A program made the translations under genes and the position numbers. Shown one piece after another: positions 4,667 through 42,538 of a stretch of DNA of 64,000 nt. Origin of the DNA: Dehalococcoidia bacterium (GTDB lineage Bacteria; Chloroflexota; Dehalococcoidia; UBA6926); contig CAXXET010000001.1 of assembly GCA_963666115.2 (NCBI GenBank), positions 1 to 64,000 of the forward strand. The letters are read 5' to 3'. How positions within the stretch are numbered: position 1 is the first letter of the stretch; the number at the start of each line of letters is the position of its first letter. Under the pieces are notes generated by a model. That model was not told the DNA's origin. It ran no database searches and saw only the letters and a list, made by a program, of their open reading frames with translations.

Positions 4667-6054
4667 GAGGGGGGGCCGGGGTGACGGGGATGGGGGGGTG
4701 GAGTGACGGAGGGCGGGCTGCTGTCGTCTGGGGTTAGGGCGCGGCGGAGGAAGTAGAGGGTTAGGGCGGTGTCGACTAGGATTCCCAGGGCGAAGAGGAC
4801 CATGATTCCGATGTAGGTGACTTGCCAGATGTTGGTGACGTATAGGAGGAATGCGATGACGTATACGGTGCCGTTCGTGAGAATCGATTGGTAGGCCATG
4901 TATTGGGTTTTGCCGAGGCCGTAGAATACGGCGTCCGTCACGGTGTTGAAGCAGAACATGATGTAGGGCACGAAGAGGATCGCGAATGCGACCAGGGCGG
5001 CGTTTACGATGTCCGGATCGTCGGACAGGGCGTTGGCGAACGTGGAGAGCCAGGGGGTGAGGGCTATCCAGACGATCATCATTGCGCCGGTGATGAGCAT
5101 CGACGACCGCCATAGCAGTCGCACTCGCTCCAGATTGGCGGAGTCCTGCGCGACGAGGGCCTTTGAGGAGTCGGCGAACGCCAGGATCGGCACGAGCATG
5201 AAGCTCCAGAGTATCTGGATCGCGACGTAGTAGCCGCTGATTTCAGTCGTGCCGATGGTGTTGACCAGCCGGATGATCATGATGAAGTAGGCGGCGTTCC
5301 TGACCGCGCTGTCCACGCCGCTGCCCAGGCCGACGCGCAGGTAGACGCGCATATCGGCGAAGGATGGCAGGGTTGTCAGGTAGCCGCTCGGCATGCGGCG
5401 GGAGGCGAGCAAGAGTCCGATGCCGACGGCAAAGAGGATTGCGCTCGACAGCAGGGTGGACCATCCGACGCCGACGACACCGGCGTCGAGCGAGAAGCCG
5501 TGTCCGCCAAAGAGCAGGCTGTCCAGGGCGAACAGCAGCAGCACGTTGAGGATGGCCAACGCGAATACAATTTTGCGCATCCCCAGCGCCTGGAAGAGGA
5601 CGACGATGGCGGCGGAAAGCAGGGTGAAGGGGATGCTGAACACGTTGACAGCAAGGAAGGCGCTTGTTTGAGCGCGGATTTCGTCCGGCGTGTCAATGAG
5701 GTCGACGAATGCGCCTCGGAAGAGGAAGACAGCAATCGCAAAGAGGAATGACGCGCCGAAGATGAACGTCATGACGCTCTTGGCGCGGTCAAGCTGGACG
5801 TCGGCGCCGGAGCGAATCTGTGAGCCGAGGAAGAAGAAGACGGCGAGAACCGTCGCCTCCTGGAAAATCTCGACGATCAGGCCGACGAATTGCCATTGGG
5901 CGACGATGGCCAGGCTGCCCGTGTCCGGGATTTCGTTGCCGATGAGGCTGACGCGGTAGAGGTTGTAGAGGTTGGGGAGGGAGAGGAAGAGGAGGATGGC
6001 CGCGAAGAGGCGGTAGTCCCATTGGCGGAGGTGGTGTGTTAGTTGATTAAGCAT
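4651..6054 (-). CDS. MATE-family efflux transporter
   Basis: 467 aa, ~12 hydrophobic segments, two-fold MATE-like repeat (FQALG / FYGLGKT). Confidence 0.8.
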   Translation of the reverse strand: MLNQLTHHLRQWDYRLFAAILLFLSLPNLYNLYRVSLIGNEIPDTGSLAIVAQWQFVGLIVEIFQEATVLAVFFFLGSQIRSGADVQLDRAKSVMTFIFGASFLFAIAVFLFRGAFVDLIDTPDEIRAQTSAFLAVNVFSIPFTLLSAAIVVLFQALGMRKIVFALAILNVLLLFALDSLLFGGHGFSLDAGVVGVGWSTLLSSAILFAVGIGLLLASRRMPSGYLTTLPSFADMRVYLRVGLGSGVDSAVRNAAYFIMIIRLVNTIGTTEISGYYVAIQILWSFMLVPILAFADSSKALVAQDSANLERVRLLWRSSMLITGAMMIVWIALTPWLSTFANALSDDPDIVNAALVAFAILFVPYIMFCFNTVTDAVFYGLGKTQYMAYQSILTNGTVYVIAFLLYVTNIWQVTYIGIMVLFALGILVDTALTLYFLRRALTPDDSSPPSVTPPPHPRHPGPPSVIPA

Positions 6055-6083
6055 TTTGGTGTTCGCTATCGATTAGGGCGAAT

Positions 6084-6127
6084 GGGGGTTCCACCCCGCG
6101 CTTAGTGTCGCACGGGATGGAACCCCC
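6084..6127. terminator. GC-rich stem-loop downstream of small ORF
   Basis: GGGGGTTCCACCCCG...CGGGATGGAACCCCC inverted repeat. Confidence 0.5.
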
Positions 6128-6137
6128 AGGCTGCCGG

Positions 6138-6308
6138 TTAGCTCTTGCCAGAGCCTCCCTTGCCGGCCTGATCCGCAGCGGGCTGATCCCCTTCGGCGCG
6201 GTCCTCCCAATCGTCCGGGCGCTCATCGTAGCCGCGCCCCGACCAGTAGGCGTCGTTGTTGGGGTTCAACTGGTTGGCGTGATTGTCCATGTCACTCTGT
6301 CTGCTCAC
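6138..6308 (-). CDS. Small hydrophilic hypothetical protein (DNHANQLNPNNDAYW motif), 56 aa
   Basis: AAGGAG RBS 7 nt before GTG at 6308; MSRQSDMDNHANQLNPNNDAYWSGRGYDERPDDWE. Confidence 0.7.
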   Translation of the reverse strand: MSRQSDMDNHANQLNPNNDAYWSGRGYDERPDDWEDRAEGDQPAADQAGKGGSGKS

Positions 6309-6576
6309 GACTATACTCCTTGTGTCGCTGTCCTGAATTGGCGTGGCTGAACGCGAGACGGCGGCCACGATGGGCTGGCGGCCTCGCGCTGTGAGTCTAT
6401 AGGCGTTCCCTCCACTCCTAACCCACGTTGTGGGACGCCAGTCTCGTGGTGAAGACCGTCGCGGCGGCCCGGGTTCCCGTTTGTCCACTCGACCCATAAT
6501 CCGGCCACCAGTCTCGCGGACAAGACCTTGAGGTGGCCAGAGGTCTACTGCGATTTTACGGGTTGGGGTGAGGGTG

Positions 6577-7224
6577 TCAAGGGGGGGTGGGCCCCAACCC
6601 GTTGAACTGGTTCATGGCTTCGTCTATGTCCTGGCGGATTAGGGTTTCTATGCAGTCTGTGGCCCGTTCAAGGGCGGATTCCAGTTGGCGTTGTTCGTCG
6701 GGGCGGAAGCGGGATAGGACGTGTTTTATGGGGTCTGCGGCGTCGCGGTTAGGGTTGTTGGCGGCGCGCGGGCCGGTGGAGGACTGCGGGTTGTTGGTGG
6801 TGGGGGTTTGGGGGCGGCCTACTCCTATTCTTAGGCGGGGGAAGGCGTCGGCGCCGAGGGATTCTATTATTGATTTCATGCCGTTGTGGCCTCCTGCGCT
6901 GCCGTAGGGGCGGAGGCGGATTGTGCCCAGGGGGAGGTCCATTTCGTCTATGACTATGAGGATGGAATCGAGGCGGCGGCCGAAGCGTCGGACTATGGGG
7001 GCGACTACCTGGCCGCTGTTGTTCATGTATGTGCCGGGGAGGATTAGGCGGACGTCTCTGCCCCAGAGGTCTGCGCGTCCTATTACTGTGCCGTTGGATC
7101 TTTGTTGGAAGTCGATGCCGTGGCGTTTGGCGAGGCGCTGGACGACCATCGCGCCGGCGTTGTGGCGGGTGTTGGCGTAGCGCGCGGTGGGGTTGCGGAG
7201 GCCGAAGATGAGGAGGGGGGTCAC
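6577..7224 (-). CDS. pth: Peptidyl-tRNA hydrolase
   Basis: GLRNP..YANTRHNAG, TYMNNSG, GSAGGHNG, RLRIGVGRP. Confidence 0.97.
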   Translation of the reverse strand: MTPLLIFGLRNPTARYANTRHNAGAMVVQRLAKRHGIDFQQRSNGTVIGRADLWGRDVRLILPGTYMNNSGQVVAPIVRRFGRRLDSILIVIDEMDLPLGTIRLRPYGSAGGHNGMKSIIESLGADAFPRLRIGVGRPQTPTTNNPQSSTGPRAANNPNRDAADPIKHVLSRFRPDEQRQLESALERATDCIETLIRQDIDEAMNQFNGLGPTPP

Positions 7225-9230
7225 GCGCGGGCCTCATTTACGCGGTGGAGGAATTCTTGTTCGTTGATTATGGGGGTTTGGAGTCGTTGGGCTTTTTCCA
7301 GTTTGGAGCCGGCTTCTTCGCCTGCTACTACGAGGGTGGTCTTTTTTGTGACTGTGCGGCCTGCCTTGCCGCCGAGGCTGCGGACGATTTCCTCGGCCTG
7401 GGGGCGGGAGAGTTCGGTTAGGCGGCCTGTTAGGACGATCTCCTCGCCTGTCCAGGGGAGGTCGCCGGCGGGGCGGGTGATTTCTTCTCTCATGCGGACG
7501 CCGGCTTCGCGGAGTTTTTGGACGAGGCGCAGGTTTTCGTCGTCGCGGAACCAAGTGAAGACGCTTTCAGCGACGACGCTGCCGATGGTGTAGATGTCCG
7601 TGAGTTCTTCCTGCGATGCGGCGGCGAGGGCGTCCATATCGCCGTAGCGTTCAGCAAGGATGCGGGCGGTTTCCTCGCCGACGTGGCGGATGCCGAGCCC
7701 GAAGATGACGTTGGCAAGGGGGCGTTCCTTCGACTGGGCGATGGCGTCGATGGCGTTCCGGGCGGATTTCTCAGCCATGCGGTCAAGGTCGGCAAGCTGC
7801 TCGACGGTGAGGGTGTAGAGGTCTGCGGAGTCGCGGATGAGACCGGCGTCCAGGCACTGCTTGACGAGGGCTTCGCCGACACCATCGATGTCCATGGCGG
7901 GGCGGCTGACGTAGTGCCGGATGAGTTCATAGCCCTGGGCGGGGCAGGCGGGGTCGAGGCAGCGGTGGACGGCCTCGCCCTCCCGGCGGACGACGGGGGC
8001 GTCGCACTCCGGGCAGGCGGCGGGCATGGTGAACAGGCGCTCCGCGCCGGTGCGGGCCTCCGCGACGGGGCCGAGGACTTTGGGGATGACCTCACCGGCG
8101 CGCTGGATGGTGACGATATCGCCGATGCGGATGTCGCGTTCGCGGATGTAGTCCTCGTTGTGGAGGGTCGCCATCTTGACAGTGACGCCGCTGACCTGGA
8201 CGGGTTCGAGGACGGCGTAGGGGTTCAGGGCGCCGGTTCGACCGACGTTGACGCCGATGTCGTTGAGGCGGGTGGTTGCCTGCTCTGCGGGGTACTTGTA
8301 GGCGATGGCCCATCGCGGCTCGCGGCCCACGTCGCCGAGCAGGCGCTGGAGGCGGAACGAGTTGACCTTGATGACGACGCCGTCCGTGCCGTAGTTGAGA
8401 GATTCGCGCTGCTCCAGGGCATCGCGGTAGAACGTCGCGGCTTCGGCGAGCGTTTCGGCGCGGCGGTTGCCGGGGTTGACCTTGAAGCCGAGTTGGCTGA
8501 GCCAGTCAAGGGTTTCGGACTGGGTTCCGGGGGCGTCGCCGTCCGCCCAGCCGAGCGAGTAGACGTAGAGTTCAAGCGGGCGGGCGGCGGTGATCTGCGG
8601 GTCGAGCTGGCGGACGGAGCCGGCGGCGGTGTTGCGGGGATTGGCGTAGGTCCGCTCGCCGCGCTCCTCGCGTTCGCGGTTCAGCTCCTCGAACTTGTCG
8701 TTGGGGAAGAGGATTTCGCCGCGCACCTCAAAGCGGGGCGGGACGTTGTCGCCGGAGACCCGGAGGGGGATGCTGCGGACGGTGCGTAGGTTGGGGGTGA
8801 CGTCCTCGCCTTCGACGCCGGTGCCGCGCGTCGCGCCGCGCGTGAGGACGCCGTTCTCATAGGTGAGGGCGACGGCAAGGCCGTCGTATTTCAGTTCGCA
8901 GTAGTAGTCGATGGCCTCGCCGGGGATGAGGGCCGCGGCGCGGCGCTCCCATGCCTCAAGCTCCTCATCGTCAAAGACGTTGCCAAGGCTGAGGAGGGGG
9001 ACGGGGTGGCGGACGGTCTGGAATCGCTCGGAGGGTTCGCCGGAGACGCGCTGGGTGGGGGAGTCTGGGGTTATTAGGTCAGGGTGGAGTTCTTCGAGGC
9101 GGCGGAGTTCACGGAGGAGGCCGTCATATTCGCCGTCGGAGATCTCGGGGGCGTCCTGGACGTAGTAGAGGCGGTCATGGCGGCGGATTAGGGCGCGGAG
9201 TTTTCCGGCCTGTTCCTGCGCGTTGTCCAT
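7221..9230 (-). CDS. ligA: NAD-dependent DNA ligase
   Basis: ELKYDG adenylation motif, C4 zinc finger, HhH and BRCT (GSKLEKA). Confidence 0.99.
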   Translation of the reverse strand: MDNAQEQAGKLRALIRRHDRLYYVQDAPEISDGEYDGLLRELRRLEELHPDLITPDSPTQRVSGEPSERFQTVRHPVPLLSLGNVFDDEELEAWERRAAALIPGEAIDYYCELKYDGLAVALTYENGVLTRGATRGTGVEGEDVTPNLRTVRSIPLRVSGDNVPPRFEVRGEILFPNDKFEELNREREERGERTYANPRNTAAGSVRQLDPQITAARPLELYVYSLGWADGDAPGTQSETLDWLSQLGFKVNPGNRRAETLAEAATFYRDALEQRESLNYGTDGVVIKVNSFRLQRLLGDVGREPRWAIAYKYPAEQATTRLNDIGVNVGRTGALNPYAVLEPVQVSGVTVKMATLHNEDYIRERDIRIGDIVTIQRAGEVIPKVLGPVAEARTGAERLFTMPAACPECDAPVVRREGEAVHRCLDPACPAQGYELIRHYVSRPAMDIDGVGEALVKQCLDAGLIRDSADLYTLTVEQLADLDRMAEKSARNAIDAIAQSKERPLANVIFGLGIRHVGEETARILAERYGDMDALAAASQEELTDIYTIGSVVAESVFTWFRDDENLRLVQKLREAGVRMREEITRPAGDLPWTGEEIVLTGRLTELSRPQAEEIVRSLGGKAGRTVTKKTTLVVAGEEAGSKLEKAQRLQTPIINEQEFLHRVNEARA

Positions 9231-14456: not shown

Positions 14457-15557
14457 TTACACCGATGCTGCCGCAGGGGTGAACCCCACCTGTTGGAGGG
14501 CACGGCCCAGCACGTCGAGCGCCTCGTCCAGCTCGTCGTCCGGCATGTGGCCAAGGTGGCCGATGCGGAAGATGGAGTTGGAGAGCCTGGCCTGGCCGCC
14601 GGCGAGCACGACGCCCATGTCCGCGGCGGCCTTGCGAATGTCCGCGACGGCGATGCCGTCCGGGCAGTTGATGGCGGTGACGGTGTTGGAGGCGTATGCC
14701 TCGTTGTCCGGGAACAGGGTGAGGCCGAGGGATTTCACGCCGGCGCGGACGCGGTCGCCGGCGGCCTGGTGGCGGGCGTGGATGTTTTCCAAGCCCTCAT
14801 CGAGGAGCTGGGCAAGGGAGGCATCGAGGGCGTAGAAGGCGGGGATGGCGGGGGTCCAGGGGGTCTGGCTGCGGGCAGAGTAGTCGCGGGCGGCGGACAG
14901 ATCGAAGTAGAACTTCGGCATCGTGGACTGTTCGACGGCCTGCCAGCCGCGCGGGCTGAGGGTGACCATGGCAAGGCCGGGGGGCGCCATCCAGCCCTTT
15001 TGGGAGCCGGTGACGACGACATCGAGGCCCCATTCGTCGACGGGGCAGGGGATGGAGCCGAGGCTTGAGACGGCATCGACGACCAGGAGCTTGTCGCGCT
15101 GCTTGACGATTTGGGCGATTTCCGCAAGGGGATTGGTGACGCCGGTGGAGGTCTCGTTGTGGGTGATGAGGACGGCGGTCACGTCCGGGTTGGCATCGAG
15201 GGAGGCGGCGACGGAATCGGGGGTTGCGGCCTCCCCCCATTCGACGCGCTGCCAGCGGACGTCCGCGCCGAATGTTTCGGCGATGCGGCCGATGCGCGCG
15301 CCGAACGCGCCGATTTCGACGGCGAGAACGGGCTCGCCGGGGGAGAGGGTGTTGACGATGGCGGCTTCCAAACCGCCAGTGCCGGAGGAGGTGAGGATGA
15401 AGACATCGTTTTGTGTTTCGAATAGGGTCTTGAGCCGCGTGGTGACGCGGTCGTAGATGTCGCGGAAGATCGGGCCGCGGTGGTCGATCATGGGGCCGGA
15501 GAGGGCGTCGAGGATGTGCTGGGGTATGGGTGTGGGGCCTGGGGTTCTGAGGTTCAC
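14457..15557 (-). CDS. Class V PLP aminotransferase (alanine-glyoxylate / serine-pyruvate family; probable SerC substitute)
   Basis: TPGPT, HNETSTG, DAVSS, GSQK, FRIGHLG; directly upstream of serA. Confidence 0.92.
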   Translation of the reverse strand: MNLRTPGPTPIPQHILDALSGPMIDHRGPIFRDIYDRVTTRLKTLFETQNDVFILTSSGTGGLEAAIVNTLSPGEPVLAVEIGAFGARIGRIAETFGADVRWQRVEWGEAATPDSVAASLDANPDVTAVLITHNETSTGVTNPLAEIAQIVKQRDKLLVVDAVSSLGSIPCPVDEWGLDVVVTGSQKGWMAPPGLAMVTLSPRGWQAVEQSTMPKFYFDLSAARDYSARSQTPWTPAIPAFYALDASLAQLLDEGLENIHARHQAAGDRVRAGVKSLGLTLFPDNEAYASNTVTAINCPDGIAVADIRKAAADMGVVLAGGQARLSNSIFRIGHLGHMPDDELDEALDVLGRALQQVGFTPAAASV

Positions 15558-15618
15558 GTGGGCGCTCCTGGTTGTTTGATGTTTTGAGTATAGGGGAATA
15601 GGGGGTGGAATGGGGGCG

Positions 15619-15644
15619 CCCTTTGACAGGCTCAGGGTGAGCGG
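15619..15644 (+). repeat. REP-like hairpin type C
   Basis: CCCTTTGACAGGCTCAGGGTGAGCGG. Confidence 0.8.
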
Positions 15645-15645
15645 A

Positions 15646-15890
15646 CTACTCCATGCGCCGCTCCACCAGTGCGCGCGCTGGCGCGGCTACGTCAGGGGCG
15701 CCTTGCAGGATGGCGTTATCCGGCGTCAGTTCTGCCCCCGCACAAAGCCCAGGAGGACGTTGCGCAGCTCACTGACCAGGATGCCGGGCGCGGCCCATTC
15801 GGCGTCATGCTCCAGCAGGGCCGCTGAATCGGCCCCGTCGTCTCCTCCCACCACAAGGCGCGCCATGACGTTGGTGTCGACTACTATCAT
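15646..15890 (-). pseudogene. VapC PIN toxin remnant with internal deletion
   Basis: MIVVDTNVMARL...WAAPGILVSELRNVL then stop; C-terminal-like LTPDNAILQGAPDVA in another frame; only 245 nt in total. Confidence 0.75.
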
Positions 15891-16129
15891 GGGCGGCCGG
15901 AGTCCTTCATCTCTCGCAAGGCGTTGTCGCTCAGATCGATGCGGCCTATGCCTTCGCGCCTGAGTCGTATTCGTTCCAGGAGGGCCTGCAGGTCCACCGG
16001 CTCGGCGCTGAACGAGGCGGCCAGCCTGGCAAGTATCTCGCCGTTGAGGCTGCGATGGTTGCGGCTCGCGGCTGATTTCAGTTCTCGATGAAGGTGGTCG
16101 GGGATGCTTCGGAGCGCGAGGTCAGGCAT
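15887..16129 (-). CDS. FitA/Arc-like RHH antitoxin
   Basis: LALRSIPDHLHRELKSAASRNHRSLNGEI, ends GRP; GGGAGG RBS. Confidence 0.88.
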   Translation of the reverse strand: MPDLALRSIPDHLHRELKSAASRNHRSLNGEILARLAASFSAEPVDLQALLERIRLRREGIGRIDLSDNALREMKDSGRP

Positions 16130-16191
16130 GCGACCCTCCCTGGGCGGCTCATGCCGTATTGATGTTGTTATGGTATCACGACAGCCGGTCG

Positions 16192-16335
16192 CCCTTCGAC
16201 GGGGTCAGGGTGAGCGGGGGCTGCGCACTTGAGGCTTTGGATTCTTCGCTGCGCTCAGAATGACATGGGCGATGGATTCCGGCCTTCGCCGGAATGACGG
16301 AGGGGGGGCTGGGTTCCCGCTTTCGCGGGAAAAAG
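16192..16335 (+). repeat. Composite REP array C-B-A-A' (BIME-like)
   Basis: C 16192-16217, B (GGATTCTTCGCTGCGCTCAGAATGACA) 16239-16265, A 16274-16299, A' 16311-16335. Confidence 0.9.
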
Positions 16336-16372
16336 AGGGGGGGAGGGTGGAGGCATTGGTGGGCTTGGATTT

Positions 16373-16962: not shown

Positions 16963-18183
16963 GGAGACCTTTGCGCAACTGCGGCCTTGTCTGTTTTGGG
17001 GACGCAGGTGGCGAGAAGGCGTGCGCTCTGTCGAGAATCGACGGTGCTTGACCGGCTGTCTGGTCGGCTAGATGAGCGCGATTTCAGTGGTCTGGCGGTA
17101 TCCGGCTCTCGGATTGTAGGGTCGTGCCCGCTTAGGCCGGGGCGGGGACGAGGTGAATCATCTTCCTGAGGTTGTAGGCCATCAGCTTCAGGTACATCTC
17201 CACCCTGTTGCGTCGCAAGCCCCGGTAGCGCACACGACTGTAGCCGTAGCTCCGTTTGAGCGTCCCAAAGACCTTCTCGACCGGGGAGCGGCGCGGCGCA
17301 ATCAGGTCATTCCGCAATTGGAGTCGCGGCGGCAGCACCCGCTGATGCTTGTTCGCCCGATGCATGATCCTGTCCTTGATGCCCATCTCCTTCAGCCGCC
17401 GTCGCCGCGCTTTCGATTCGTAGGCGCGGTCGCCGTACACCGCTCGCTCATCCCCGCTGATCAATTCGTCCGCCACCTCGCTCTCATACACCACGGCCGA
17501 TGTGAATTCCGCCTGGCGCACGATGCCCGTCCCCTCGTCCACCCCGGCGTGCGCCTTGTAGCCGAAGTGCGTTCGTGACCCGCGGCCGGTGCGGCTCCAG
17601 CCCGCGTCCGGGTCCGTCTCGCTCCGCGCGCCAGGCCCCGCGCTCATCGGAGGGCGTTTGACCTGCGCCTCCACCAGCGTGGCGTCCATCAATGTCCCCG
17701 ACTTGACGAGCAATCCCCGCTTGTCCAGCTGCGCGCCCAACTCCTGGAAGAGCGTCTCCGCCAAACCGCGCCGCCCCAGCTCCGTGCGGAAACGGCTGAT
17801 CGTCGAGTGATCCGGCGCGTCATCCTCAAGTCCCAGCCCCACGAAGCGGCGGAACGAGATGCGGTCCGTCAGCGCCTCCTCCATCTGGGGGTCCGAGGCG
17901 TTGTACCACTGCTGCAACAGGAGGACCTTCACCATCGTCAGCGGCGGGTAGCTGGGGCGACCCTCCGACGCCGAATAGATGTCATCCACCAACGTGGCGA
18001 ATCGATCCCAATCGATCTCTGCGCCGATGCGCTCCAGGCGCGTATTCCTGCCGAGCTTCTCCGGCAACAACGTCTCCGCCAGTGACGGCTGCCCCATCTG
18101 ACGATGCATCGCTCACCCTCCTCTCTCTCCATCCGCGCTCACCCCAATTTTGGCTTGAGTGAGAGAGTTATGCAAAGGTCTCC
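16963..18183 (-). mobile_element. IS5-family (IS1106-like) insertion sequence, 1221 bp
   Basis: 18-bp TIRs GGAGACCTTTGC(GC/AT)AACT; TTTC direct repeats at 16959-16962 and 18184-18187. Confidence 0.95.
17132..18109 (-). CDS. IS5-family DDE transposase
   Basis: GRPSYP, LQQWYNASD, PDHSTISRFR, MDAT, FGYKAH, YGDRAY, RSPVEKVFGTLKR. Confidence 0.97.
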   Translation of the reverse strand: MHRQMGQPSLAETLLPEKLGRNTRLERIGAEIDWDRFATLVDDIYSASEGRPSYPPLTMVKVLLLQQWYNASDPQMEEALTDRISFRRFVGLGLEDDAPDHSTISRFRTELGRRGLAETLFQELGAQLDKRGLLVKSGTLMDATLVEAQVKRPPMSAGPGARSETDPDAGWSRTGRGSRTHFGYKAHAGVDEGTGIVRQAEFTSAVVYESEVADELISGDERAVYGDRAYESKARRRRLKEMGIKDRIMHRANKHQRVLPPRLQLRNDLIAPRRSPVEKVFGTLKRSYGYSRVRYRGLRRNRVEMYLKLMAYNLRKMIHLVPAPA

Positions 18184-29893: not shown

Positions 29894-30781
29894 TTAGGAC
29901 AAGTCCCAGACGCGGGCTTTGCCGTCTGCTGCTGTTACGGCCAGGAGGTTGGCGTCCGGGGTGAAGGCGGCCAGGTGGACGCCCTTGATGGATAGCGGGT
30001 ATTCGGCTACGGATTCGAGCGAGGGCAGGGTTAGTACGCGGACGCGTTTTTCTTCGAGGACGGCTAGTCGGGTGCCGTTGGGGGAGAGTCTTACGGAGCG
30101 GGGGGCTTTTGAGCCGATGTCAAAGGTCTGCGTTAGTGACCAGTCTGTAGTCGACCACATATGAATCTGACCGTCGAATGCCTGCGTCATGACGGAAGAG
30201 CCATCTTGGGTGAGTTGCATGGCCCGGGCGGATTGGGCGTGGCCGGGGAGGGTTGCGGTGATTTCGGCGGTGTTGATGTTCCATATCAGGGCTTCGTCTC
30301 CGCCGCCTGCTGAGATTAGGGTTTTGGCGTCGGGGAGGAACTCTACGGCGGCGCTGATGCGGTATGGGGGTTTTAGGGTGGCGGGCTTGGCGTCCGGGGT
30401 GCTTGGGTTCCAGATTCGGATCGTGGTGTCGGTGGCGGCGGATGCGAGGCGGCTGCCGTCCGGCGACCATGACAGGCCCATGACGGTGTTGCGGTGGCCT
30501 TTGAGGATGGCGGCGGGTTCTTGCGAGCCGGCGCGCCAGATGCTGATTGTGCGGTCGGATGAGGAGACGGCGAAGGTGTCGTTGTCCGGGGCGAAGGCTA
30601 TGTGGTTCGTGCTCTTTTCGTGGTGGACGTACTGGCCGACTTCATGCCAGGAAGCGGTGTCATAGACTCGGATGAGGCCGCCGAATCCACCGACGAGCAG
30701 ACGCTTGCCGTCCGGCGAGAACGCGACGGCGTAGGCGTGGCCCTCAAAGGCGTCCAGTTCTGCTATGAGTTGTCCGGTCAC
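29894..30781 (-). CDS. WD40-repeat beta-propeller protein
   Basis: About 7 GH...SPDG...IRIW/VWD repeats; AGGAG RBS before GTG 30781. Confidence 0.92.
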   Translation of the reverse strand: MTGQLIAELDAFEGHAYAVAFSPDGKRLLVGGFGGLIRVYDTASWHEVGQYVHHEKSTNHIAFAPDNDTFAVSSSDRTISIWRAGSQEPAAILKGHRNTVMGLSWSPDGSRLASAATDTTIRIWNPSTPDAKPATLKPPYRISAAVEFLPDAKTLISAGGGDEALIWNINTAEITATLPGHAQSARAMQLTQDGSSVMTQAFDGQIHMWSTTDWSLTQTFDIGSKAPRSVRLSPNGTRLAVLEEKRVRVLTLPSLESVAEYPLSIKGVHLAAFTPDANLLAVTAADGKARVWDLS

Positions 30782-30890
30782 GGTCGGTCTCCTGCTGCTG
30801 CCTGTGAATGGAGGATAGTTTCGCACTACAGGATAGCGATTCGCGGCGCGCGGGGAAACAGAGCGGGCTGATTGCAACTACACTGGGGCT

Positions 30891-31601
30891 ATGGTCAAGA
30901 AAGACGCCGATGACGGCAGCGAGCACGTGAGCGTGAATGGGCTGAGCGAGCAGTTCGGCACGGGCTATTCGTCGTCGCAGTTGTCCGGATACCGGAAGAA
31001 CGGGCTGGGACAGCGGGCGTTGGCGGTTATCGAGTTCCTGCAGGAGCGCGGGCTGGAGGGGAAATCGGTGCTGGACATCGGCAGCGGGATCGGCGCGCTG
31101 CACATGGAACTGGTGTTGGCGGGGGCCGAGAGAGCGACGGGGGTGGATGCTTCACCAACGAATATCGCGGCGGCGCTGGAATTGGCCGCGGACCTGAATT
31201 TGGCGGACAGGGTAGAGGAGCGGCAGGGTGATTTCGTCCAGCTGCAAGACTCCGTTCCCGAGGCCGATATCGTGACGCTTGACCGCGCGATTTGATGCTA
31301 TCCGTCCGTCCAGCAGTTGCTGGCTGCTTCCGGGGCGCACTCTCGCGAGTACGTGGCGTTGACGATGCCGCGGCGGACGGTGTTGATGCGAGTGGGGATC
31401 CGGGTTATCAATTTGTTGCTGGGAGTGGCGCGGAAGAAGTTCCGTGTCTATGACCATTCGCCGGCGGTCATTGATGAGACACTTCGGGGGGCGGGGTTTC
31501 GGAAGGTTTTGGAGCGGCCGGCGGGGTTGTGGGAGGCGCGGGTTTATGAGCGGGAGGGGCGGGCGGGGGTTAAGGACGCCGGCGCTGGACCTGGTTCATG
31601 A
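30891..31601 (+). CDS. Class I SAM methyltransferase with in-frame TGA (candidate selenocysteine)
   Basis: VLDIGSGIG, GVDAS, GDF; DRAI-TGA-CYP at 31293-31295; downstream ORF is in the same frame. Confidence 0.8.
31308..31324 (+). promoter_or_regulatory. Candidate bacterial SECIS hairpin
   Basis: G(T)CCAGC-AGTT-GCTGGC; apical loop begins 19 nt after the UGA. Confidence 0.5.
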
Positions 31602-32163
31602 AGGCTTGGTCGATTTCGTGGCGCATATCAACTAAATCCCACAGTTCGTTCGAATAGCCGCTGACAGCCGACCGATACGGACCGTGGAACAACCAGATGG
31701 AAACGCCTTCTTCTCGAGCCATGGCGACTGCGGGAATGAGGTCACTATCGCCCGTGATAATTGCGAAATGCGTTACGACTTGCTTGGCGCTAAGCCGCAC
31801 AATATCCGAGGCAATCTGGACGTCCACTTGCTTCTGTTCGAGGTTCAGTCTTCCTGCCTCGTCAGTACCGCGCAGAACCAGCCTGCCAAGCCGCACTTCA
31901 AATCTGGGCAGCCGCCTCAACCGCTCGATAAATCTGGCAGCACGAGCATAGCGGGAAGCTTCCTCAGGCGTAGGGGGTTCACTCCGAAACGGAAGCGCGG
32001 TGTAGTAATACGTCCGGAACAGCCGCACCGGCTCGTCTTCGGAAGAACGAACAATCCCCTGAATAGCCTCGCTCAATGCCCGATAGTCGACCCTGACATG
32101 GAATTCTTCTTGCGCCACCTTGTCAAGGTAGCCTCCGTCGATGAGGATTGCGAGCGAAGCCAT
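31570..32163 (-). CDS. NYN (LabA/DUF88) domain PIN-like nuclease
   Basis: ILIDGGY, YYY, QKQVDV, TGDSDLIP. Confidence 0.92.
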   Translation of the reverse strand: MASLAILIDGGYLDKVAQEEFHVRVDYRALSEAIQGIVRSSEDEPVRLFRTYYYTALPFRSEPPTPEEASRYARAARFIERLRRLPRFEVRLGRLVLRGTDEAGRLNLEQKQVDVQIASDIVRLSAKQVVTHFAIITGDSDLIPAVAMAREEGVSIWLFHGPYRSAVSGYSNELWDLVDMRHEIDQAFMNQVQRRRP

Positions 32164-32352: not shown

Positions 32353-33331
<979 letters not shown>

Positions 33332-33343: not shown

Positions 33344-34439
33344 TCAGGAGCGCTTGCCGGCTTGCATCTTCTGGATGATGGCGTCTGCCATTTCCTGCGT
33401 GCCGACGGCGGTGGGGTCGTTGCGGTCCGTCTTGAAATCGTACGTGACGTCCTTGCCTTCGCGTATGACCTCGGCAACCGCGCCCTCGACGCGCTCGGCG
33501 GCTTCCTGCTCATTGAGGTAGCGGAGCATGAGCGCGCCGGTGAGGACCGTGGCCGTTGGATTTACGCGATTTTGGCCGGTGTAGCGGGGGGCGGAGCCGT
33601 GGACAGGCTCAAAGACCGCGCCGCTCTCGCCGATGTTGCCACCGGGGGCGAGGCCGAGGCCGCCGACCAGACCGGCGCAGAGGTCGGAAACGATGTCGCC
33701 GTAGAGATTGGGCAGTACGAGAACGTCATACTCCTCCGGGCGGGAGACCATTTGCATACTGAGGTTATCCACGATGCGGTCGTTGAACTCAATATCGGGA
33801 TAGTCCTTGGCGACGTTCTGGGCGACTTCAAGGAAAAGGCCGTCCGAGAACTTCATGATGTTGGCCTTGTGGACGGCGGTGACGAGCTTGCGGTTGTTGG
33901 CCTTGGCGTATTCAAAAGCGAACCTGACGATGCGCTCGCTGCCGGTGACGGAGATGGGCTTGATGGAGATGGCGGAATCGTCGCGGATGGGCTGGCCGGA
34001 GGCGTTGCGGAGGAACTCTATGACTTCCGACGTGCCCCTCGGCGTCCTTTTCAAATTCGACGCCGGCGTACAGGTCTTCCGTGTTTTCCCGGACGACAAC
34101 GATGTCCACGTTGGTGTAGCGGGATCGGACGCCTGGGTAGCTCTTGGACGGGCGCAGGTTGGCATAGAGGTCCAGGGCCTTGCGGAGGGCTACGTTTGCG
34201 CTGCGGAATCCCGTGCCGACGGGCGTCGTGAGGGGACCCTTGATGCCGACTCCATTCTTTCGAATAGACTCCAGGACTCGATCGGGGATCAATTCTCCCT
34301 CGCGTTCAAGGACGGCCTCGCCGGCCTCCTGGACATCCCAGTTGAATTCGATGCCCGTCGCTTCGATAACGCGGCGCATTGCGCCGGATACTTCGGGCCC
34401 AATTCCGTCGCCCGGAATGAATGTGACGTCATACGCCAT
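33344..34439 (-). CDS. icd: Isocitrate dehydrogenase (NAD-type IDH/IPMDH family; frameshift ~34035)
   Basis: [44 protein letters not shown]. Confidence 0.88.
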
Positions 34440-36364: not shown

Positions 36365-36594
36365 CAGGTTGTTCTCCCAGGGAGCCGGGACGCGGCGCGC
36401 CGGCGGAAGGGGAGGGCGGGCAGGGTTCGCCCGGTGGCGTACCGCATGCTCATCGCCACGTGCCGGCCCCGCAAGCGCCACGAATCCGTGGACGAGGAGG
36501 CAAGGTCGTGCCTGGGCATTTCGTCCTGCTCGTAGGCTTCGATGGCCGCGATGATCGCGGCGCGCAGGCTTTCGCTTATGTCGTTCGTGGTCAT
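36364..36594 (-). CDS. Small acyl-CoA carboxylase epsilon-like subunit
   Basis: AAIIAAIEAY...SWRLRGR; translationally coupled on both sides. Confidence 0.65.
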   Translation of the reverse strand: MTTNDISESLRAAIIAAIEAYEQDEMPRHDLASSSTDSWRLRGRHVAMSMRYATGRTLPALPFRRRAASRLPGRTT

Positions 36595-38174
36595 AGGGGG
36601 ATGTTCCCGTGCTTGCGCGGGGGCATTGTATCGCGTTTGTTGCGCAGCATATCAAGAGCGCGGATGATGAGCTTGCGCGTGTCGGCGGGATCGATCACGT
36701 CCTCGATGTAGCCGCGCGCGGCGGCGATATAGGGGTTCAGGAACTGGTCGTTGTACTCCTCGATGGCGCGCTGCCGCTCCTCATCGGGGTTCTCCGCGCT
36801 GCGGATGCGGTCACGGAAGATGATGTCCGCCGCGCCCTCGGAGCCCATGACGGCCATCTCGGCGCCGGGCCAGGCGTAGCCGATGTCGCCGCGCAGCATC
36901 TGGGAGGACATGACGAGGAACGCGCCGCCGTAGGACTTGCGGGTGACGACGCTGACCTTGGGGACGGTGGCCTCGGCGTAGGCGTAGAGGAGTTTCGCGC
37001 CGTGCATGATGATGCCGTTGTGCTCCTGCTCGACGCCGGGGAGGTAGCCGGGGACATCCGTGAGGGTGACGATGGGGATGTTGAAGGCATCGCAGAATCG
37101 GACGAACCGGGCGGCCTTGATGGCGGCGTTGATGTCCAGGGTGCCGGCGAGAACCATCGGCTGCTGGGAGACAATGCCGACCGACCGACCGTTGAAGCGG
37201 GCAAAGCCGACGACGATGTTTGCGGCCCACCGGGAATGGACTTCGAGGAACTCGCCGTTATCGACGATGGCCTGGATGACATCGCGGACGTCATAGGGCT
37301 CGTTGGGGTTGACGGGCACAAGATCGCGGAGCTCGGGGCAGAGTCGATCCGGAGGGTCGTCGACGCCGAACTCGGGGGGATCGTCCTCGTTGTTGGAGGG
37401 CAGGTAGCTGAGGAGCTGGCGGGCGAGATCGAGGCACTCGTCCTCACCGGGGGCGGCAAAGTGGGCGACGCCGCTCTGCGTCGTGTGGGGCGTCGCGCCG
37501 CCAAGCTGCTCGTGGGTGACGACCTCGCCTGTGACGGCGCGGATGACGTCCGGCCCGGTGATGTACATCTGGCCGACGCCCTCCTCCATGATGATGAAGT
37601 CGGTGATGGCGGGGCTGTAGACGGCGCCGCCGGCGGAGGGGCCCATGATGAGGCTGATCTGGGGGATGACGCCGGATGCGAGGACGTTTCGGACGAAGAC
37701 GTTGCCGTAGCCGGCGAGGCTGTCCACGCCCTCCTGGATGCGCGCGCCGCCGGAGTCCATGATGCCGACGATGGGCGCGCCGGTCTTGGCGGCCATGTCC
37801 TGCACCTTGTTGATCTTGCGGGCGGCGGTGAGGGAGAGGGTGCCGCCGAGGACGGTGAAGTCAAAGGCGTAGATGAAGACGGTCCGGCCGTCCACCGTAC
37901 CGTAGCCCGTGACGACGGAGTCGCCGGGGACGCGGCGGTCAGCGAGGCCGAATTCAAGGACGTTGTGCGCGGTGAGGGCGTCAAGCTCAACAAAGGAATC
38001 CGGGTCAAAGAGTCGTTCGACGCGCTCATGCGCGGTGAGCTTGCCGCGGGCGTGCTGGCGCTCAACGGCTGCGGCGCCGCCACCGGCGCGGGAGGCCTCG
38101 TGGCGTTCGGCAAGCTCCTGGAGCTTATCCTGCATGGTCATGGGCTGTGCGATTCCACCCCCAGATTTGCTCAT
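36591..38174 (-). CDS. Acyl-CoA carboxyltransferase beta (PccB/MmdA/12S family)
   Basis: GKLTAHER, SGGARIQEG, GGAVYSPA, DVPGYLPG, KHGNIPL. Confidence 0.96.
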   Translation of the reverse strand: MSKSGGGIAQPMTMQDKLQELAERHEASRAGGGAAAVERQHARGKLTAHERVERLFDPDSFVELDALTAHNVLEFGLADRRVPGDSVVTGYGTVDGRTVFIYAFDFTVLGGTLSLTAARKINKVQDMAAKTGAPIVGIMDSGGARIQEGVDSLAGYGNVFVRNVLASGVIPQISLIMGPSAGGAVYSPAITDFIIMEEGVGQMYITGPDVIRAVTGEVVTHEQLGGATPHTTQSGVAHFAAPGEDECLDLARQLLSYLPSNNEDDPPEFGVDDPPDRLCPELRDLVPVNPNEPYDVRDVIQAIVDNGEFLEVHSRWAANIVVGFARFNGRSVGIVSQQPMVLAGTLDINAAIKAARFVRFCDAFNIPIVTLTDVPGYLPGVEQEHNGIIMHGAKLLYAYAEATVPKVSVVTRKSYGGAFLVMSSQMLRGDIGYAWPGAEMAVMGSEGAADIIFRDRIRSAENPDEERQRAIEEYNDQFLNPYIAAARGYIEDVIDPADTRKLIIRALDMLRNKRDTMPPRKHGNIPL

Positions 38175-38256: not shown

Positions 38257-38260
38257 GAGG

Positions 38261-40191: not shown

Positions 40192-40311
40192 GTGAAACAT
40201 GCTAATCGTTGCAACAATACCTGTCAAGGTCGGGGCTGTATGACCGGTAAGGGCAGACTTCGACTACCCCGGTTCCACGTGGGCGGGGGTATGATTTGGG
40301 GAGGGGGGGCA

Positions 40312-40338
40312 CCCTTCGACGGGGCTCAGGGTGAACGG
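40312..40338 (+). repeat. REP-like hairpin type C
   Basis: Direct repeat of 38230-38256. Confidence 0.9.
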
Positions 40339-40347
40339 GGGTGGCGG

Positions 40348-41275
40348 GTGTTTGAGTGGGGGCGGCGGACGTTTGTGATGGGGATTGTGAATGTTTCGCC
40401 GGAGTCGTTTTCGGGGGACGGGGTGGCTGACGTGGATGCGGCCGTCTCGTTGGCGCTTCGCTTTGTAGAGGAGGGGGCGGATATTTTGGACGTTGGGGGG
40501 CAGTCTACGCGGCCGCGGTATTCGGCGGCGGTGGAGGCGGGCCGCCCTGATGGGCGGCGTGGGCCCCCGCCTACGCGGGGGATTCGGAATGATGCGGGGG
40601 GGAGGGGGGGGCGATGGATTCCGGCCTTCGCCGGAATGACGGGAAGGGAATCGGGTACGAGGAGTTGTCTGTTGAGGAGGAGATTGGGCGGGTTGTGCCT
40701 GTGATTCGTGCTATTAGGGGGCGGGTGGAGACGCCGATTAGCGTGGATACTTATAAGGGGGGGGGGTGGCGGAGGCGGGGATTGAGGCGGGGGCTTCGAT
40801 TGTGAATGATGTTTGGGGGTTGAAGCGGGATGCTTCGCTGGCGGGGGTTGTGGCGCGGCATGGGGCGTCGCTGGTCTTGATGCACAATCAGTTGGAGCCC
40901 GGGTATACGCGGTTGGTTCCGGATATTGTGGCTAGTTTGCGGTGGAGTGTTGCGGCGGCTTTGGCGGCGGGGGTTTCGCGGGACCGGATCATTGTCGATC
41001 CGGGGTTTGGGTTTGGGAAGACGGTGTCGCACAACCTTGAGGTCCTGCGGCGGCTTGGGGAGATCAAGTCGGCTTTGGGGCTGCCTTTGCTCTTGGGGAC
41101 TAGCCGGAAATCGACCATCGGGCATGTGTTGGGGCTGCCGGTGAGTGAGCGTTTGGAGGGGACTGGGGCTACGGTGGCGCTGGGGATCGGGCAGGGGGCA
41201 GATATTGTGCGGGTGCATGACGTTAAGGAGATGGGGAGGGTGGTTAGGATGGCGGATGCGGTGGTGCGGGGGTAG
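40348..41275 (+). CDS. folP: Dihydropteroate synthase with repeat insertion; frameshifts in G-runs
   Basis: MGIVNVSPESFSGDG, GGQSTRP, SVDTYK, NDVWG, DPGFGFGK, GTSRKS, RVHDV. Confidence 0.9.
40616..40641 (+). repeat. REP-like hairpin type A inside folP
   Basis: GGATTCCGGCCTTCGCCGGAATGACG. Confidence 0.88.
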
Positions 41276-41300
41276 ATTCTTCGCTGCGCTCAGAATGACA
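41274..41300 (+). repeat. REP-like hairpin type B overlapping folP stop
   Basis: AGATTCTTCGCTGCGCTCAGAATGACA followed by two GGGCTGGGTGACATG units. Confidence 0.85.
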
Positions 41301-41376
41301 TGAGGGCTGGGTGACATGGGGGCTGGGTGACATGGGGGTTCAGGTGGAGAGGGATTCTTGCGGAGGAATTGGCGGG

Positions 41377-42538
41377 ATGGCGGTTGCTTATTTGGGGTTG
41401 GGGGGGAACCTGGGGGATCGGGAGGGGACGATTCGCTGGGCGATAGGGGAGTTGGGGGCGGCGTCCGAGTTGGGGGGGCGGGGGGGAGGTTGCGGCGGTT
41501 TCGTCTTTGTATGAGACGGAGCCTGTTGGGTATTTGGAGCAGCCGCTTTTCCTCAATGGGTGCGTGGTTTTGCGGACGGGGTTGGCGCCTGAGGCGTTGT
41601 TGGAGTTCGTCAAGGGACTGGAGTCGCGGGCGGGGCGCGTTGAGAGTTTTCGGAATGCGCCACGGCCGCTGGATATCGATATTCTCTTCTACGTGGACGA
41701 TGGCGGGGAGCACGTGGTGATGGAGTCGGAGCGGCTGACGATTCCGCATCCGCGGATGCATGAGCGGGGATTCGTGCTGGTTCCGCTGGCTGAGATTGCG
41801 GGTGATGCGCGGCATCCTGTGTTGGGGCGGACGGTGGGGGAGCTGCGGGCGTCGCTCCGGCTGCGGGAGGTCTATGAGCGGCTCTTGGGGGCGTATGGGC
41901 AACAGGGGTGGTGGCCCGGCGATACTCCGTTCGAGGTGATGGTTGGGGCGGTCCTGACGCAGAATACGGCGTGGACGAACGTGGAGAAGGCGATTGCCGC
42001 GCTGCGGGAGGCGGACGCGCTGAACCCGCCGGCGCTGCGGACGCGGCCTTTGGATGAGCTTGCCGCGCTGATCCGGCCGTCGGGCTATTTCAATGCCAAG
42101 GCGCGCAAGCTGCGGGCTCTGGGCGAGTACCTGGGCGAGCATGGGGACGACGTCGAGGCGCTGTTTTCATCGCGGCCAATGGATGAGCTGCGGGAGGAGC
42201 TGCGGGGGCTGCACGGCGTTGGGCCGGAGACGGCGGACTCCATGCTGCTGTATGCGGGGAATCTGCCGTCGTTCGTGATCGATGCGTACACAATCCGCAT
42301 ATTGACCCGCTTGGGCATCCTCAACGTGGACAGCAAGCCGTCATACGCGGACGCGCAGGCTATGTTCCATGAGGCTTTGCCGCGCGACGCCGCGCTTTTC
42401 AACGAGTATCATGCGCTGTTCGTGGCGCATGGGAAGGACGTGTGCAGGGCGCGGAGGCCGTTGTGCGGGGAGTGTGTGCTGGCGGCGGAGTGCGAGTTTG
42501 GGCTCTCGCCGCCGCAGCAGGCAGCGGGAGAGTTCTAA
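41377..42538 (+). CDS. folK: FolK (HPPK) fused to HhH-GPD endonuclease III-like domain; frameshift in G-run ~41475
   Basis: YLGLGGNLGD, YETEP, PRPLDIDIL, PHPRMHERGFV, then in frame WWP, GAVLTQNT, GVGPETAD, C-X6-C-X2-C-X5-C. Confidence 0.85.

Follow-up and report, generated by a model that had tools for sequence, protein, structure and literature searches.

Local strand-specific G+T halos beside oriented hairpin repeats in a Dehalococcoidia genome

The window analysed here is a 64,000-nt stretch, the first 64 kb of contig C1 (CAXXET010000001.1, forward strand) in the genome of a Dehalococcoidia bacterium, referred to as G000 (2,067,757 bp, 9 contigs, 64% G+C, 100% complete). An earlier note on this window had described short intervals next to repeats and accessory genes in which the + strand turns strongly G- and T-rich while the encoded proteins stay conserved, and had suggested that these 'halos' are the trace of recurrent strand-specific mutation. 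We find that such local halos near repeats are real, forming an excess on top of a strong regional bias. They are a 150-300-bp local intensification of a strand-asymmetric bias present throughout the skewed domains of the genome, a loss of C and gain of G and T on the G-rich strand, and are centred on short hairpin repeats resembling repetitive extragenic palindromic (REP) elements. As to their origin, we assign a probability of about 0.5 to the interpretation that the halos are a repeat-linked, strand-specific mutational footprint.

Genes, repeats and halos in the window

The + strand of the first 42 kb displays a GC skew of mostly 0.1-0.4 per kb together with negative AT skew, and beyond 42 kb the GC skew is about 0. 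All homopolymer runs of at least 7 nt in the window (23 of 23, between positions 2039 and 41486) are G on the + strand, with no C run, and G-quadruplex (G4)-type motifs within 1-42 kb number 27 on the + strand and 0 on the - strand. The genes concerned are listed below; Pfam agrees with the gene names given by the earlier note.

4651-6054, - strand: MATE (Pfam MatE)
6577-7224, - strand: pth (Pfam)
7221-9230, - strand: ligA (Pfam)
14457-15557, - strand: class-V aminotransferase gene
18343-19266, - strand: ribF (Pfam)
21654-23363, - strand: proS (Pfam)
29894-30877, - strand: WD40 gene (Pfam)
32353-32994 and 32897-33289, - strand: mdh, as two overlapping open reading frames (ORFs; Pfam)
40192-40704 and 40766-41275, + strand: folP, in two pieces (Pfam)
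from 41507, + strand: folK, continuing into an HhH-GPD domain (Pfam)
3514-4479: HEPN gene, accessory-looking
17132-18109: IS5-family transposase, accessory-looking
28846-29778: DUF6615 gene, accessory-looking
31570-32163: NYN gene, accessory-looking

Each repeat element is a hairpin of 20-26 nt with, in most cases, a G tract 3' of it that fits the G-quadruplex motif; it often occurs in arrays. The hairpin kinds are GGATTCCGGC-CTTC-GCCGGAATGAC; GGATTCTTCGCTGCGCTCAGAATGAC; GG(A/G)TTCCCGC-TTTC-GCGGGAA; and CCCTTCGACAGGCTCAGGGTGA(A/G)CGG. Stems TTCCGGC/GCCGGAA and TTCCCGC/GCGGGAA appear in the predicted single-stranded DNA folds for two hairpins of the array at 16200-16360. Annotated copies in the window all share one orientation (13 of 13), and no Rfam family matched in the window. 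Copies lying in or beside the halos and elsewhere in the window, with types labelled R1 to R4, include the following.

2164-2188, + strand: hairpin repeat of the GGGTTCCCGC-TTTC-GCGGGAA type, inside a 600-bp G-rich, C-poor tract (1851-2450)
4641-4665, + strand: hairpin repeat GGATTCCGGC-CTAC-GCCGGAATGAC, overlapping the MATE stop, with G runs next to it
16192-16335, + strand: array of four hairpins (R4, R2, R1-type, R3-type) in one orientation, with G runs at its end
18243-18302, + strand: two hairpins (R2, R1), then a G tract at 18328-18342 with a run of 9 G
21579-21653, + strand: R1 hairpin (21579-21603) directly past the proS stop, and a G tract that holds two G4-type motifs

Skew is expressed throughout as keto skew (G+T-A-C) unless GC skew is named. 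In sliding 150-bp windows moved by 50 bp, the keto skew of the + strand rises above 0.33 in local peaks at 151-550, 1851-2450, 4501-4800, 6551-6900, 7101-7400, 15401-15650, 18201-18500, 21501-21800, 30201-30500, 31401-31600 and 40251-41950. The highest peak reaches 0.63 and falls within 1851-2450, where C makes up just 9-10% of the bases. For gene ends, third-position keto values of an interval were compared with those of the rest of the same gene by Fisher's test; among eight intervals tested in this way five are significant, one is borderline and two fail. The halos are as follows, each pair of values giving the interval and then the rest of the gene, with third-position T added where it is informative.

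4666-4900: halo at the 3' end of MATE (gene on -); third-position keto at 4700-4900, 0.73 vs 0.41, p=0.003
6551-7520: halo over the whole of pth and the 3' end of ligA (genes on -), with a G tract at 6560-6587 and no annotated hairpin; ligA 3' end (7221-7520), 0.76 vs 0.52, p=0.004, third-position T 0.33 vs 0.08
15401-15650: halo at the 5' end of the class-V aminotransferase gene, with an R4-type repeat at 15619-15644
18343-18470: halo at the 3' end of ribF (gene on -); 0.95 vs 0.58, p=0.0009, third-position T 0.42 vs 0.10
21654-21840: halo at the 3' end of proS (gene on -); 0.87 vs 0.51, p=0.0004, and 0.86 vs 0.62 at four-fold sites
29831-30100: R2 hairpin (29831-29856, +) and halo at the 3' end of the WD40 gene; 0.74 vs 0.50 at 29894-30100, p=0.02
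32353-32470: borderline halo at the 3' end of mdh (gene on -); 0.65 vs 0.37, p=0.053, third-position T 0.47 vs 0.12
40250-41950: 1.7-kb halo over folP and folK (genes on +), with an R1 hairpin, an R2 hairpin, an R4-like copy and G runs of 7-10 nt

Among the - strand gene ends for which halos had been claimed, those of MATE, pth, ribF, proS and the WD40 gene and the 3' end of ligA thus stand, mdh is borderline, and the 5' end of ligA (8930-9230) shows no halo, with third-position keto of 0.54 vs 0.56. The mdh halo has no annotated repeat and adjoins the unskewed NYN-domain gene. On the + strand, folP and folK are skewed throughout: over full gene length the skew is 0.51 and 0.79 in the two folP pieces and 0.53 in folK, and it is 0.76 in pth. 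The 3' end of the methyltransferase gene (31150-31295), named in the same claim, has no halo (0.22 vs 0.26). The repeats of the folP-folK region comprise the R1 hairpin inside folP (40616-40640), R2 between the genes (41274-41299) and the R4-like copy near 40310. Both gene orientations show the halo, which confirms that its polarity is tied to the DNA strand and not to transcription; the rise of T on the + strand corresponds to A-ending codons in the - strand genes. The idea that gene interiors revert to normal usage does not hold, as core - strand genes keep a third-position skew of 0.4-0.6 throughout. The accessory genes are unskewed (the insertion sequence (IS) -0.18, NYN -0.08, HEPN +0.07).

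Could these peaks be chance maxima of an ordinary replichore-wide bias? Such an explanation can point to the skew of the whole first 42 kb, to the two of eight intervals that do not differ from the rest of their genes and to the near uniformity of four-fold skew along repeat-free genes. The variance of the skew in the window speaks against it. In non-overlapping 150-bp windows of positions 1-42000 the standard deviation is 0.139, 1.7 times the binomial 0.081, and 13 of 279 windows reach 0.4, whereas at 42001-64000 the standard deviation equals the binomial one (0.084 vs 0.082) and 0 of 146 windows reach 0.4.

The skew gradient across the genome

Annotation of repeats allowed up to 4 mismatches to 5-6 motifs, with gaps disallowed, and yielded an incomplete list, from which the copy near 40310 is missing. 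It nonetheless comprises 327 elements in 232 clusters over the 2.07 Mb of G000, which typically lie no more than 150 nt past a stop codon. Of the 327, 253 are oriented in accordance with the sign of the 20-kb GC skew, 12 are oriented against it and 62 are in neutral regions (209, 6 and 49 with a narrower motif set). G4-type motifs in the first 100 nt 3' of clusters, on the same strand, occur at 0.37 per cluster in G000 and 0.29 in G008, the second species introduced below; elsewhere the value is 0.01-0.04, and on the other strand about 0.

Gene calls for the genome-wide measurements come from a third gene caller, which recovered 24 of the 31 Pfam-supported ORFs of the window, the 7 misses being overlapping or weak-scoring ORFs. 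The gene score cut-off was at least 50 or 60, except for the four-fold base frequencies by orientation (at least 40) and the 185-cluster gradient (at least 25). At trpA (19656-20549) and a carboxyltransferase gene (36591-38174) two early callers chose the opposite strand, because the strand bias distorts codon statistics; the true strand was taken from Pfam. The wrong call at trpA persists in the third caller with a score of 19, below the cut-offs used. Gene finding by codon usage therefore calls for caution in such genomes.

The four-fold keto skew, polarised by repeat orientation, displays a decaying gradient of the kind the earlier note had predicted. Around 185 clusters it amounts to 0.61 within 0-100 bp, 0.45 at 100-200 bp and 0.35-0.40 at 200-300 bp, on both sides, and settles at about 0.29 from 300 bp out to 2.5 kb, so that background is reached by ~300 bp. 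A refined profile over 232 clusters, restricted to confident genes with their first 120 nt removed and taken in 50-bp bins, gives 0.59/0.58/0.51/0.45/0.43/0.44 on the 5' side and 0.61/0.66/0.50/0.42/0.39/0.29 on the 3' side, with 0.27-0.38 further out. The difference between near and far positions is positive in 48 of 59 5' flanks and 72 of 83 3' flanks (Wilcoxon p=5e-7 and 8e-11). Near repeats the four-fold composition shifts from ~0.27 to 0.12 for C, from ~0.58 to 0.66-0.70 for G and, on the 3' side, from 0.08 to 0.16 for T.

The same picture emerges from gene 3' ends. With a repeat within 150 nt, the skew over the last 300 nt is 0.72/0.68/0.58/0.62/0.49 in genes on the C-rich strand (35 genes) and 0.54/0.63/0.56/0.56/0.52 in those on the G-rich strand (19 genes), as against a flat 0.27-0.36 in 350 genes without a repeat within 1 kb. 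A skew that is uniform along genes and unrelated to repeat distance is thus found only where no repeat is nearby. Spacer length is no explanation, since ends with spacers of at least 150 nt lack the effect when they are repeat-free (0.35 vs 0.27, 75 genes) and have it when a repeat is present (0.62 vs 0.35, 60 genes). In skewed domains an annotated repeat is found no more than 400 bp from 54 of the 100 extreme 150-bp windows, compared with 11.6% of all windows, a 4.7-fold enrichment.

On a larger scale, the contigs of G000, the chromosome of G008 (closed) and the first 1.0 Mb of a third species, G013, are mosaics of domains with positive, negative or neutral GC skew, 50-300 kb in size. A two-replichore layout was looked for in these three genomes, and many sign changes were found instead; dnaA (C8:66200) lies away from any of them. 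Four-fold sites carry G at 0.55-0.60 and C at 0.24-0.30 in both gene orientations (429 and 382 genes), a GC skew of ~0.35-0.4, and gene orientation relative to the local skew is kept in 262 of 274 orthologs of G000 and G008. Polarised by the nearest repeat, the four-fold GC skew falls from 0.49 to ~0 beyond 16 kb. A kb-scale decay from repeats was considered and rejected as a domain effect, since more than 300 bp from repeats the skew does not change any further within the gaps separating same-oriented repeats. The domain value itself is 0.45 in gaps shorter than 4 kb, 0.26 in gaps of 16-32 kb and ~0.05 in gaps above 32 kb. By the usual rule the G-rich strand is the leading strand, serving as lagging-strand template. 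The genes of ribosomal protein L2 and 16S rRNA lie on the locally G-rich strand (both of 2 informative loci), which fits this rule weakly; rpoC lies in a neutral stretch.

The gradient, the enrichment of extreme windows near repeats and the patchwork layout refute an ordinary replichore bias with chance maxima as the sole explanation, and we regard it as very improbable.

The shift is not confined to synonymous sites. Four-fold sites shift by about +0.35; codon positions 1 and 2 follow with about +0.1 to +0.15, roughly a third as much. Genes on the G-rich strand encode 12.9 vs 9.4% Gly and 3.5 vs 5.6% Pro; Gly, Val and Phe are raised and Pro, Thr and His lowered, with the mirror image on the other strand. 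Because synonymous sites shift most and positions 1 and 2 less, the halo looks like mutational bias that purifying selection has filtered, and unlike random consensus errors.

This bears on the suspicion that the halos are assembly or sequencing artefacts, arising from poor consensus beside repeats, strand-specific read errors or poly-G artefacts. In support of it, long G runs lie at or close to the points where several core genes (folP, folK, mdh, icd) break, a typical sign of wrong homopolymer lengths; G000 has the strongest halos; and the longest exact-match contigs from run X6, among the matches listed, start at 18550 and 21893, just past two halos, which they leave uncovered. Errors, however, would affect all codon positions equally and would not spare the C-termini, which are conserved, and the same gradient is present in two separately assembled genomes. 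Moreover, a contig from run X1, which belongs to a different study and represents a strain ~95-96% identical, covers 21659-22169 at 96% identity (19 differences in 511 nt) and carries the proS halo, which is therefore not an assembly artefact. We consider an artefactual origin scarcely credible.

In the X1 strain the 97 nt at 21562-21658, which hold the hairpin and the G tract 3' of proS, are missing and 'GA' stands instead. This difference shows a recent gain or loss of the element at a site that is filled in the loci of five relatives.

Repeats, halos and substitutions across species

The genus includes at least 19 further genomes, several of them closed. Relatives whose ProS proteins are 78-90% identical are Dehalococcoidia or Chloroflexota metagenome-assembled genomes. 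Two genomes served for systematic comparison. G008, a second species with a closed chromosome, has 89% median protein identity to G000 (767 ortholog pairs), of which 274 orthologs were usable in a two-genome test. For the third species, G013, the first 1.0 of 1.85 Mb was used, hence the three-way test comprises 193 ortholog triples.

The coupling of repeat orientation to skew recurs in both. G008 has 211 elements, of which 185 agree with the local skew, 6 oppose it and 20 are neutral; the corresponding numbers for G013 are 89, 6 and 22. The halo of G008 is one-sided: the skew is 0.48/0.56/0.50 in the first 150 nt 3' of the repeat vs ~0.3, with none on the 5' side; near exceeds far in 53 of 66 3' flanks and 16 of 30 5' flanks. 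In G013, 19 of 25 3' flanks are positive. G000 differs from them in that its general skew is the strongest, its halos extend to both sides and its long G/C runs are about twice as numerous.

Orthologous sites are seen filled and empty between species. At proS, the loci of five relatives have an R1 copy at a distance of 8-27 nt from the stop, and the other loci lack it. Repeats and halos were compared at the same gene ends, defined as the last 60 codons (aligned conserved C-termini), with the gene interior as reference. The values below are end/interior.

Two genomes, repeat in neither (n=218): G000 0.33/0.30; G008 0.22/0.22
Two genomes, repeat in G000 only (n=18): G000 0.65/0.35; G008 0.28/0.18
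Two genomes, repeat in G008 only (n=25): G000 0.62/0.35; G008 0.51/0.32
Two genomes, repeat in both (n=13): G000 0.55/0.45; G008 0.47/0.37
Three genomes, repeat in G000 only (n=15): G000 0.70/0.36; G008 0.18/0.11; G013 0.18/0.10
Three genomes, repeat in G008 only (n=9): G000 0.51/0.29; G008 0.35/0.21; G013 0.27/0.15
Three genomes, repeat in G013 only (n=11): G000 0.39/0.37; G008 0.34/0.30; G013 0.33/0.26

At ends where G000 alone has the insertion, G000 alone has the halo (G000 vs G008 at G000-only repeat ends, p=4e-21), which favours the view that the repeat brings the halo.

These private ends also reveal the substitutions involved. A scan of metagenome contigs for close strains, with which changes could be polarised, gave no ProS match above 51% identity; the earlier state was taken from four-fold sites at which G008 and G013 agree, with changes on the G000 branch counted on the G-rich strand. 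At the 15 private-repeat ends we count C>G at 33 of 70 sites, C>T at 14 of 70, and G>C and G>A at 3 of 126 each. The interiors of the same 15 genes give C>G 200/531, C>T 19/531 and G>C 58/765, and repeat-free ends C>G 254/868, C>T 55/868 and G>C 93/1404. Relative to interiors, private-repeat ends have ~5-fold more C>T (p=3e-6) and less G>C (p=0.03), and loss of C by any route is 1.5-fold higher (47/70 vs 231/531, 0.67 vs 0.44, p=2e-4). A>G was found at 5 of 6 sites in halos vs 37 of 86, which is a matter of few sites. The unpolarised net flow from G008 to G000 in halos is C>G +40, A>G +32, T>G +15 and C>T +6, with C>G counted 62 times vs 22 for G>C. The excess of C>T and A>G that had been proposed is thus borne out in part: C>T is the most specifically enriched change, the bulk of the shift is C>G, and the A>G component rests on those 5 of 6 sites. 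Since the composition shifts towards purines, transitions alone are insufficient.

As to sequence context, C in halos falls to 0.43-0.63 of background whichever base precedes it, with the lowest ratios after G and A. The largest shift takes place after a 5' G, where G rises from 0.43 to 0.70, and this lengthens G runs. In folP an Ala-Ala of G008 corresponds to Gly-Gly-Gly in G000, inside a run of 10 G.

Several core genes of the window have irregular frames. The break in folP falls at the run of 10 G (40757-40766), and the gene also carries an in-frame insert of ~100 nt, made up of a hairpin repeat and a G tract, which G008 is without. The N-terminus of folK is out of frame around G7CG7 (41472-41486), and the icd ORF (33344-34439) spans profile positions 148-348 only. 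For the split folP, folK, mdh and icd we see either decay driven by the growth of G runs or homopolymer errors of assembly.

The preference for growing G runs raises the possibility of selection on the DNA itself, in which the hairpin and G tract would be functional polar elements and their flanks would be kept G-rich and C-poor for the sake of structure or of a dense strand-specific motif. The concentration of G4-type motifs 3' of the repeat on one strand in two species, the almost invariant orientation, the presence of elements at orthologous sites in several species and the largest shift falling after a 5' G are all in line with this. On the other hand, the bias enters conserved proteins and alters their amino acids, as in the folP case, and it accompanies split frames at G runs in folP and folK, which counts as a cost and not a gain; it declines gradually with distance, without a break at the element boundary; and it also raises T (from 0.08 to 0.16 on the 3' side), which selection for G tracts does not predict. 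We therefore find selection of this kind improbable.

A more serious competitor is that repeats enter or survive in DNA that is already C-poor and G-rich, or that repeats and halos both follow a lasting property of the site; a strand that is often single-stranded, for example, would both mutate asymmetrically and serve as a substrate of single-strand transposition. Several observations that weigh against a footprint of the repeats are at the same time observations in favour of such a common cause. G000 has halos at the 25 ends where only G008 has a repeat (0.62 vs 0.35). At ends that are repeat-free in both G000 and G008, the excess of end over interior is still correlated between them (rho 0.33, p=9e-7), and for 10 of 23 strong G000 halos neither genome has an annotated repeat. 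The X1 strain retains the halo sequence at proS without the repeat and G tract. No more than 54 of the 100 extreme windows have an annotated repeat within 400 bp. Repeat density tracks the domain skew, which, together with the flatness within gaps beyond 300 bp, fits a common cause equally well.

Other observations weigh against the footprint in their own right. Across the loci of 19 relatives, 12 of them distinct, the proS halo is unrelated to repeat presence, at ~40 sites per gene. Ends with a repeat in G013 only have hardly any halo in all the genomes (+0.07, n=11). Four-fold divergence between G000 and G008, at sites near saturation, is not clearly raised in halos: 0.47 vs 0.41 where the repeat is in G000 only, and 0.37 vs 0.39 and 0.36 vs 0.37 in the other classes. 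A context of the enzymatic type (deaminase, 5'-TC) was looked for and none was found. Genes for uracil-DNA glycosylase and endonuclease V are present (in 20 of 20 and 18 of 20 genomes) and open in G000, and loss of either was rejected on this ground as a cause of the strong bias of G000.

What tells against the common cause is above all the behaviour of private insertions. At the 15 G000-only ends the excess is +0.34 in G000 vs +0.07 and +0.08 in the other species, which are near halo-free there; a strong pre-existing halo is therefore not needed for insertion. Likewise, G000 carries three repeats in the folP-folK region and G008 none, and the skew there is much stronger in G000. Repeat-free halos can be relics of lost repeats, a plausible idea because repeats are gained and lost at the same sites, and the incomplete repeat list may add to their apparent number, as the missed copy near 40310 illustrates. 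On these grounds we see the common cause as possible but somewhat unlikely.

The footprint interpretation of the earlier note survives, then, in that the halos are tied to repeat distance, fixed to a DNA strand, strongest at synonymous sites and private where the repeat is private; its transition-only spectrum does not, and the single-strand exposure, error-prone repair or repeat-targeting machinery that it invoked as cause stay conjectural.

Possible mechanism and relation to known systems

How could a short element write such a halo? The element itself, or its repeated arrival and loss at the same spots, is the most probable cause of extra strand-specific damage or error-prone copying nearby, and purifying selection would then filter the result, so that synonymous sites change most and proteins stay recognisable. 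A possible common denominator is prolonged or recurrent single-strandedness of the G-rich strand, which would account for why the halos are polar, why they have this length and why C is kept in the stems; the hairpin and G tract would fold only with their own strand unpaired. The halos may accordingly mark places where the G-rich strand is often exposed. Single-strandedness could arise in lagging-strand synthesis, in gap repair or in the gain and loss of the element. In one possible route, the hairpin and G tract would fold on the lagging-strand template and delay copying, and C>T and C>G could stem from cytosine deamination and bypass of the resulting lesions. A lagging-strand block, to add a further point to those weighing against the footprint, predicts exposure 5' of the hairpin, and the halos of G008 and G013 lie 3', on the side of the G tract. 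A more far-reaching version is that the elements mark or create recurrently single-stranded sites, through lagging-strand priming and restart or through transposition by an unrecognised enzyme, and that these sites write both the halos and the skew domains, with the growth of poly-G breaking the folate genes. We hold this version to be doubtful.

The halos touch on three known kinds of phenomena, namely strand skew, REP-like repeats and mutagenesis at structured DNA. Strand compositional skew in bacteria is usually treated as smooth and replichore-wide. The skew described here resembles replication-associated GC and keto skew in that G exceeds C and T exceeds A on one strand regardless of transcription, most strongly at four-fold sites and visibly in amino-acid usage. 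It differs in forming conserved patchwork domains instead of two replichores and in being non-uniform, with values of 0.5-0.7 in the last 300 nt beside repeats.

The repeats themselves are reminiscent of REPs, bacterial interspersed mosaic elements (BIMEs) and REP doublets forming hairpins (REPINs), which are described as mobilised by Y1 transposases of the REP-associated tyrosine transposase (RAYT) type (PMC2817692, PMC3733652, PMC3116915). Like these, they are short imperfect palindromes in hundreds of copies, mostly downstream of genes, in mixed arrays of sub-families; they are present across the genus and gained or lost at the same intergenic sites, and one copy, that in folP, is intragenic. 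The differences are equally clear. No Y1_Tnp gene was found in G000: RAYT Y1 transposase (PF01797) had 0 matches there, and the control matched in 6 of 14 reference genomes. REPs are reported to follow an end-tag rule of GTAG or CGTC (PMC3733652); here such a tag is lacking, and the ends read GGATTC... and ...GAATGAC (complement GTCATTC). Array copies share one orientation instead of alternating, and they carry a G-tract tail. In the literature searched, the portions of the sources we could draw on mention no compositional halos or synonymous-site skew gradients around REP-like repeats, which makes for a weak statement of novelty.

Two further parallels concern exposed single strands. The near-perfect coupling of orientation to the G-excess strand recalls the single-strand transposons of the IS200/IS605 group. 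Work on IS608 by Ton-Hoang and colleagues is said to have dealt with the orientation bias of such transposons. For IS200/IS605 elements an orientation bias with replication direction is described (PMC3971601). No such transposase was detected here, and the known cases concern orientation, not a mutation gradient in the flanks. Mutagenesis at non-B DNA and signatures of single-strand cytosine deamination, the latter with strand-coordinated C>T and C>G (PMC10715669, PMC12887540), share with the halos a central hairpin or G4 motif and strand-coordinated loss of C to T and G in the flanks. The halos differ from them in having no TC or CC preference and no implicated deaminase, and in representing an evolutionary equilibrium in bacterial coding DNA, not somatic clusters.

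The significance of these observations lies in the fine structure of the skew, which peaks near oriented hairpins, reaches into essential genes and has a domain strength that scales with repeat density. If the repeats cause the halos, they would offer a natural genome-wide read-out of strand-specific mutagenesis at structure-forming bacterial DNA, and genes next to REP-like elements would bear a measurable mutational cost from them. If the repeats instead home to skewed DNA, the halos would map sites of unusual strand exposure, which bears on movement in the absence of a recognisable transposase. Either way, predictions follow for replication direction, priming and repair in an uncultured lineage of Chloroflexota.

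The repeats also appear to have a guest of their own. An IS5-family insertion sequence (DDE_Tnp_1 and DUF772) occurs in three copies, in the window and at G000:C6:405631-406849 and C6:173963-175182, all at the identical loop position of a GGATTCCCGC-TTTCG-CGGGAA hairpin, with CTTTCG on either side. The copy in the window is as follows.

16964-18182, - strand: IS5-family insertion sequence in a hairpin-repeat loop, CTTTCG on both sides, outside the halo (skew -0.18)

As the insertion sequence sits inside the hairpin loop, the repeats are insertion targets, and it looks like this family targets hairpin repeats. IS1397 and ISKpn1 provide a precedent for such targeting.

Two other parts of the window deserve mention. 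Within 15619-16217, two small unskewed - strand ORFs (15726-15890 and 15887-16129), toxin-antitoxin-like by size and overlap only, are flanked by two R4-type repeat copies, so that the whole resembles an accessory cassette in a repeat array. At 42500-57200, a region free of hairpin repeats, very large - strand ORFs (including ones of 1069 and 1467 aa) are built of repeats of ~240-300 nt, with a GC skew near 0 and an AT skew of -0.17 to -0.29.

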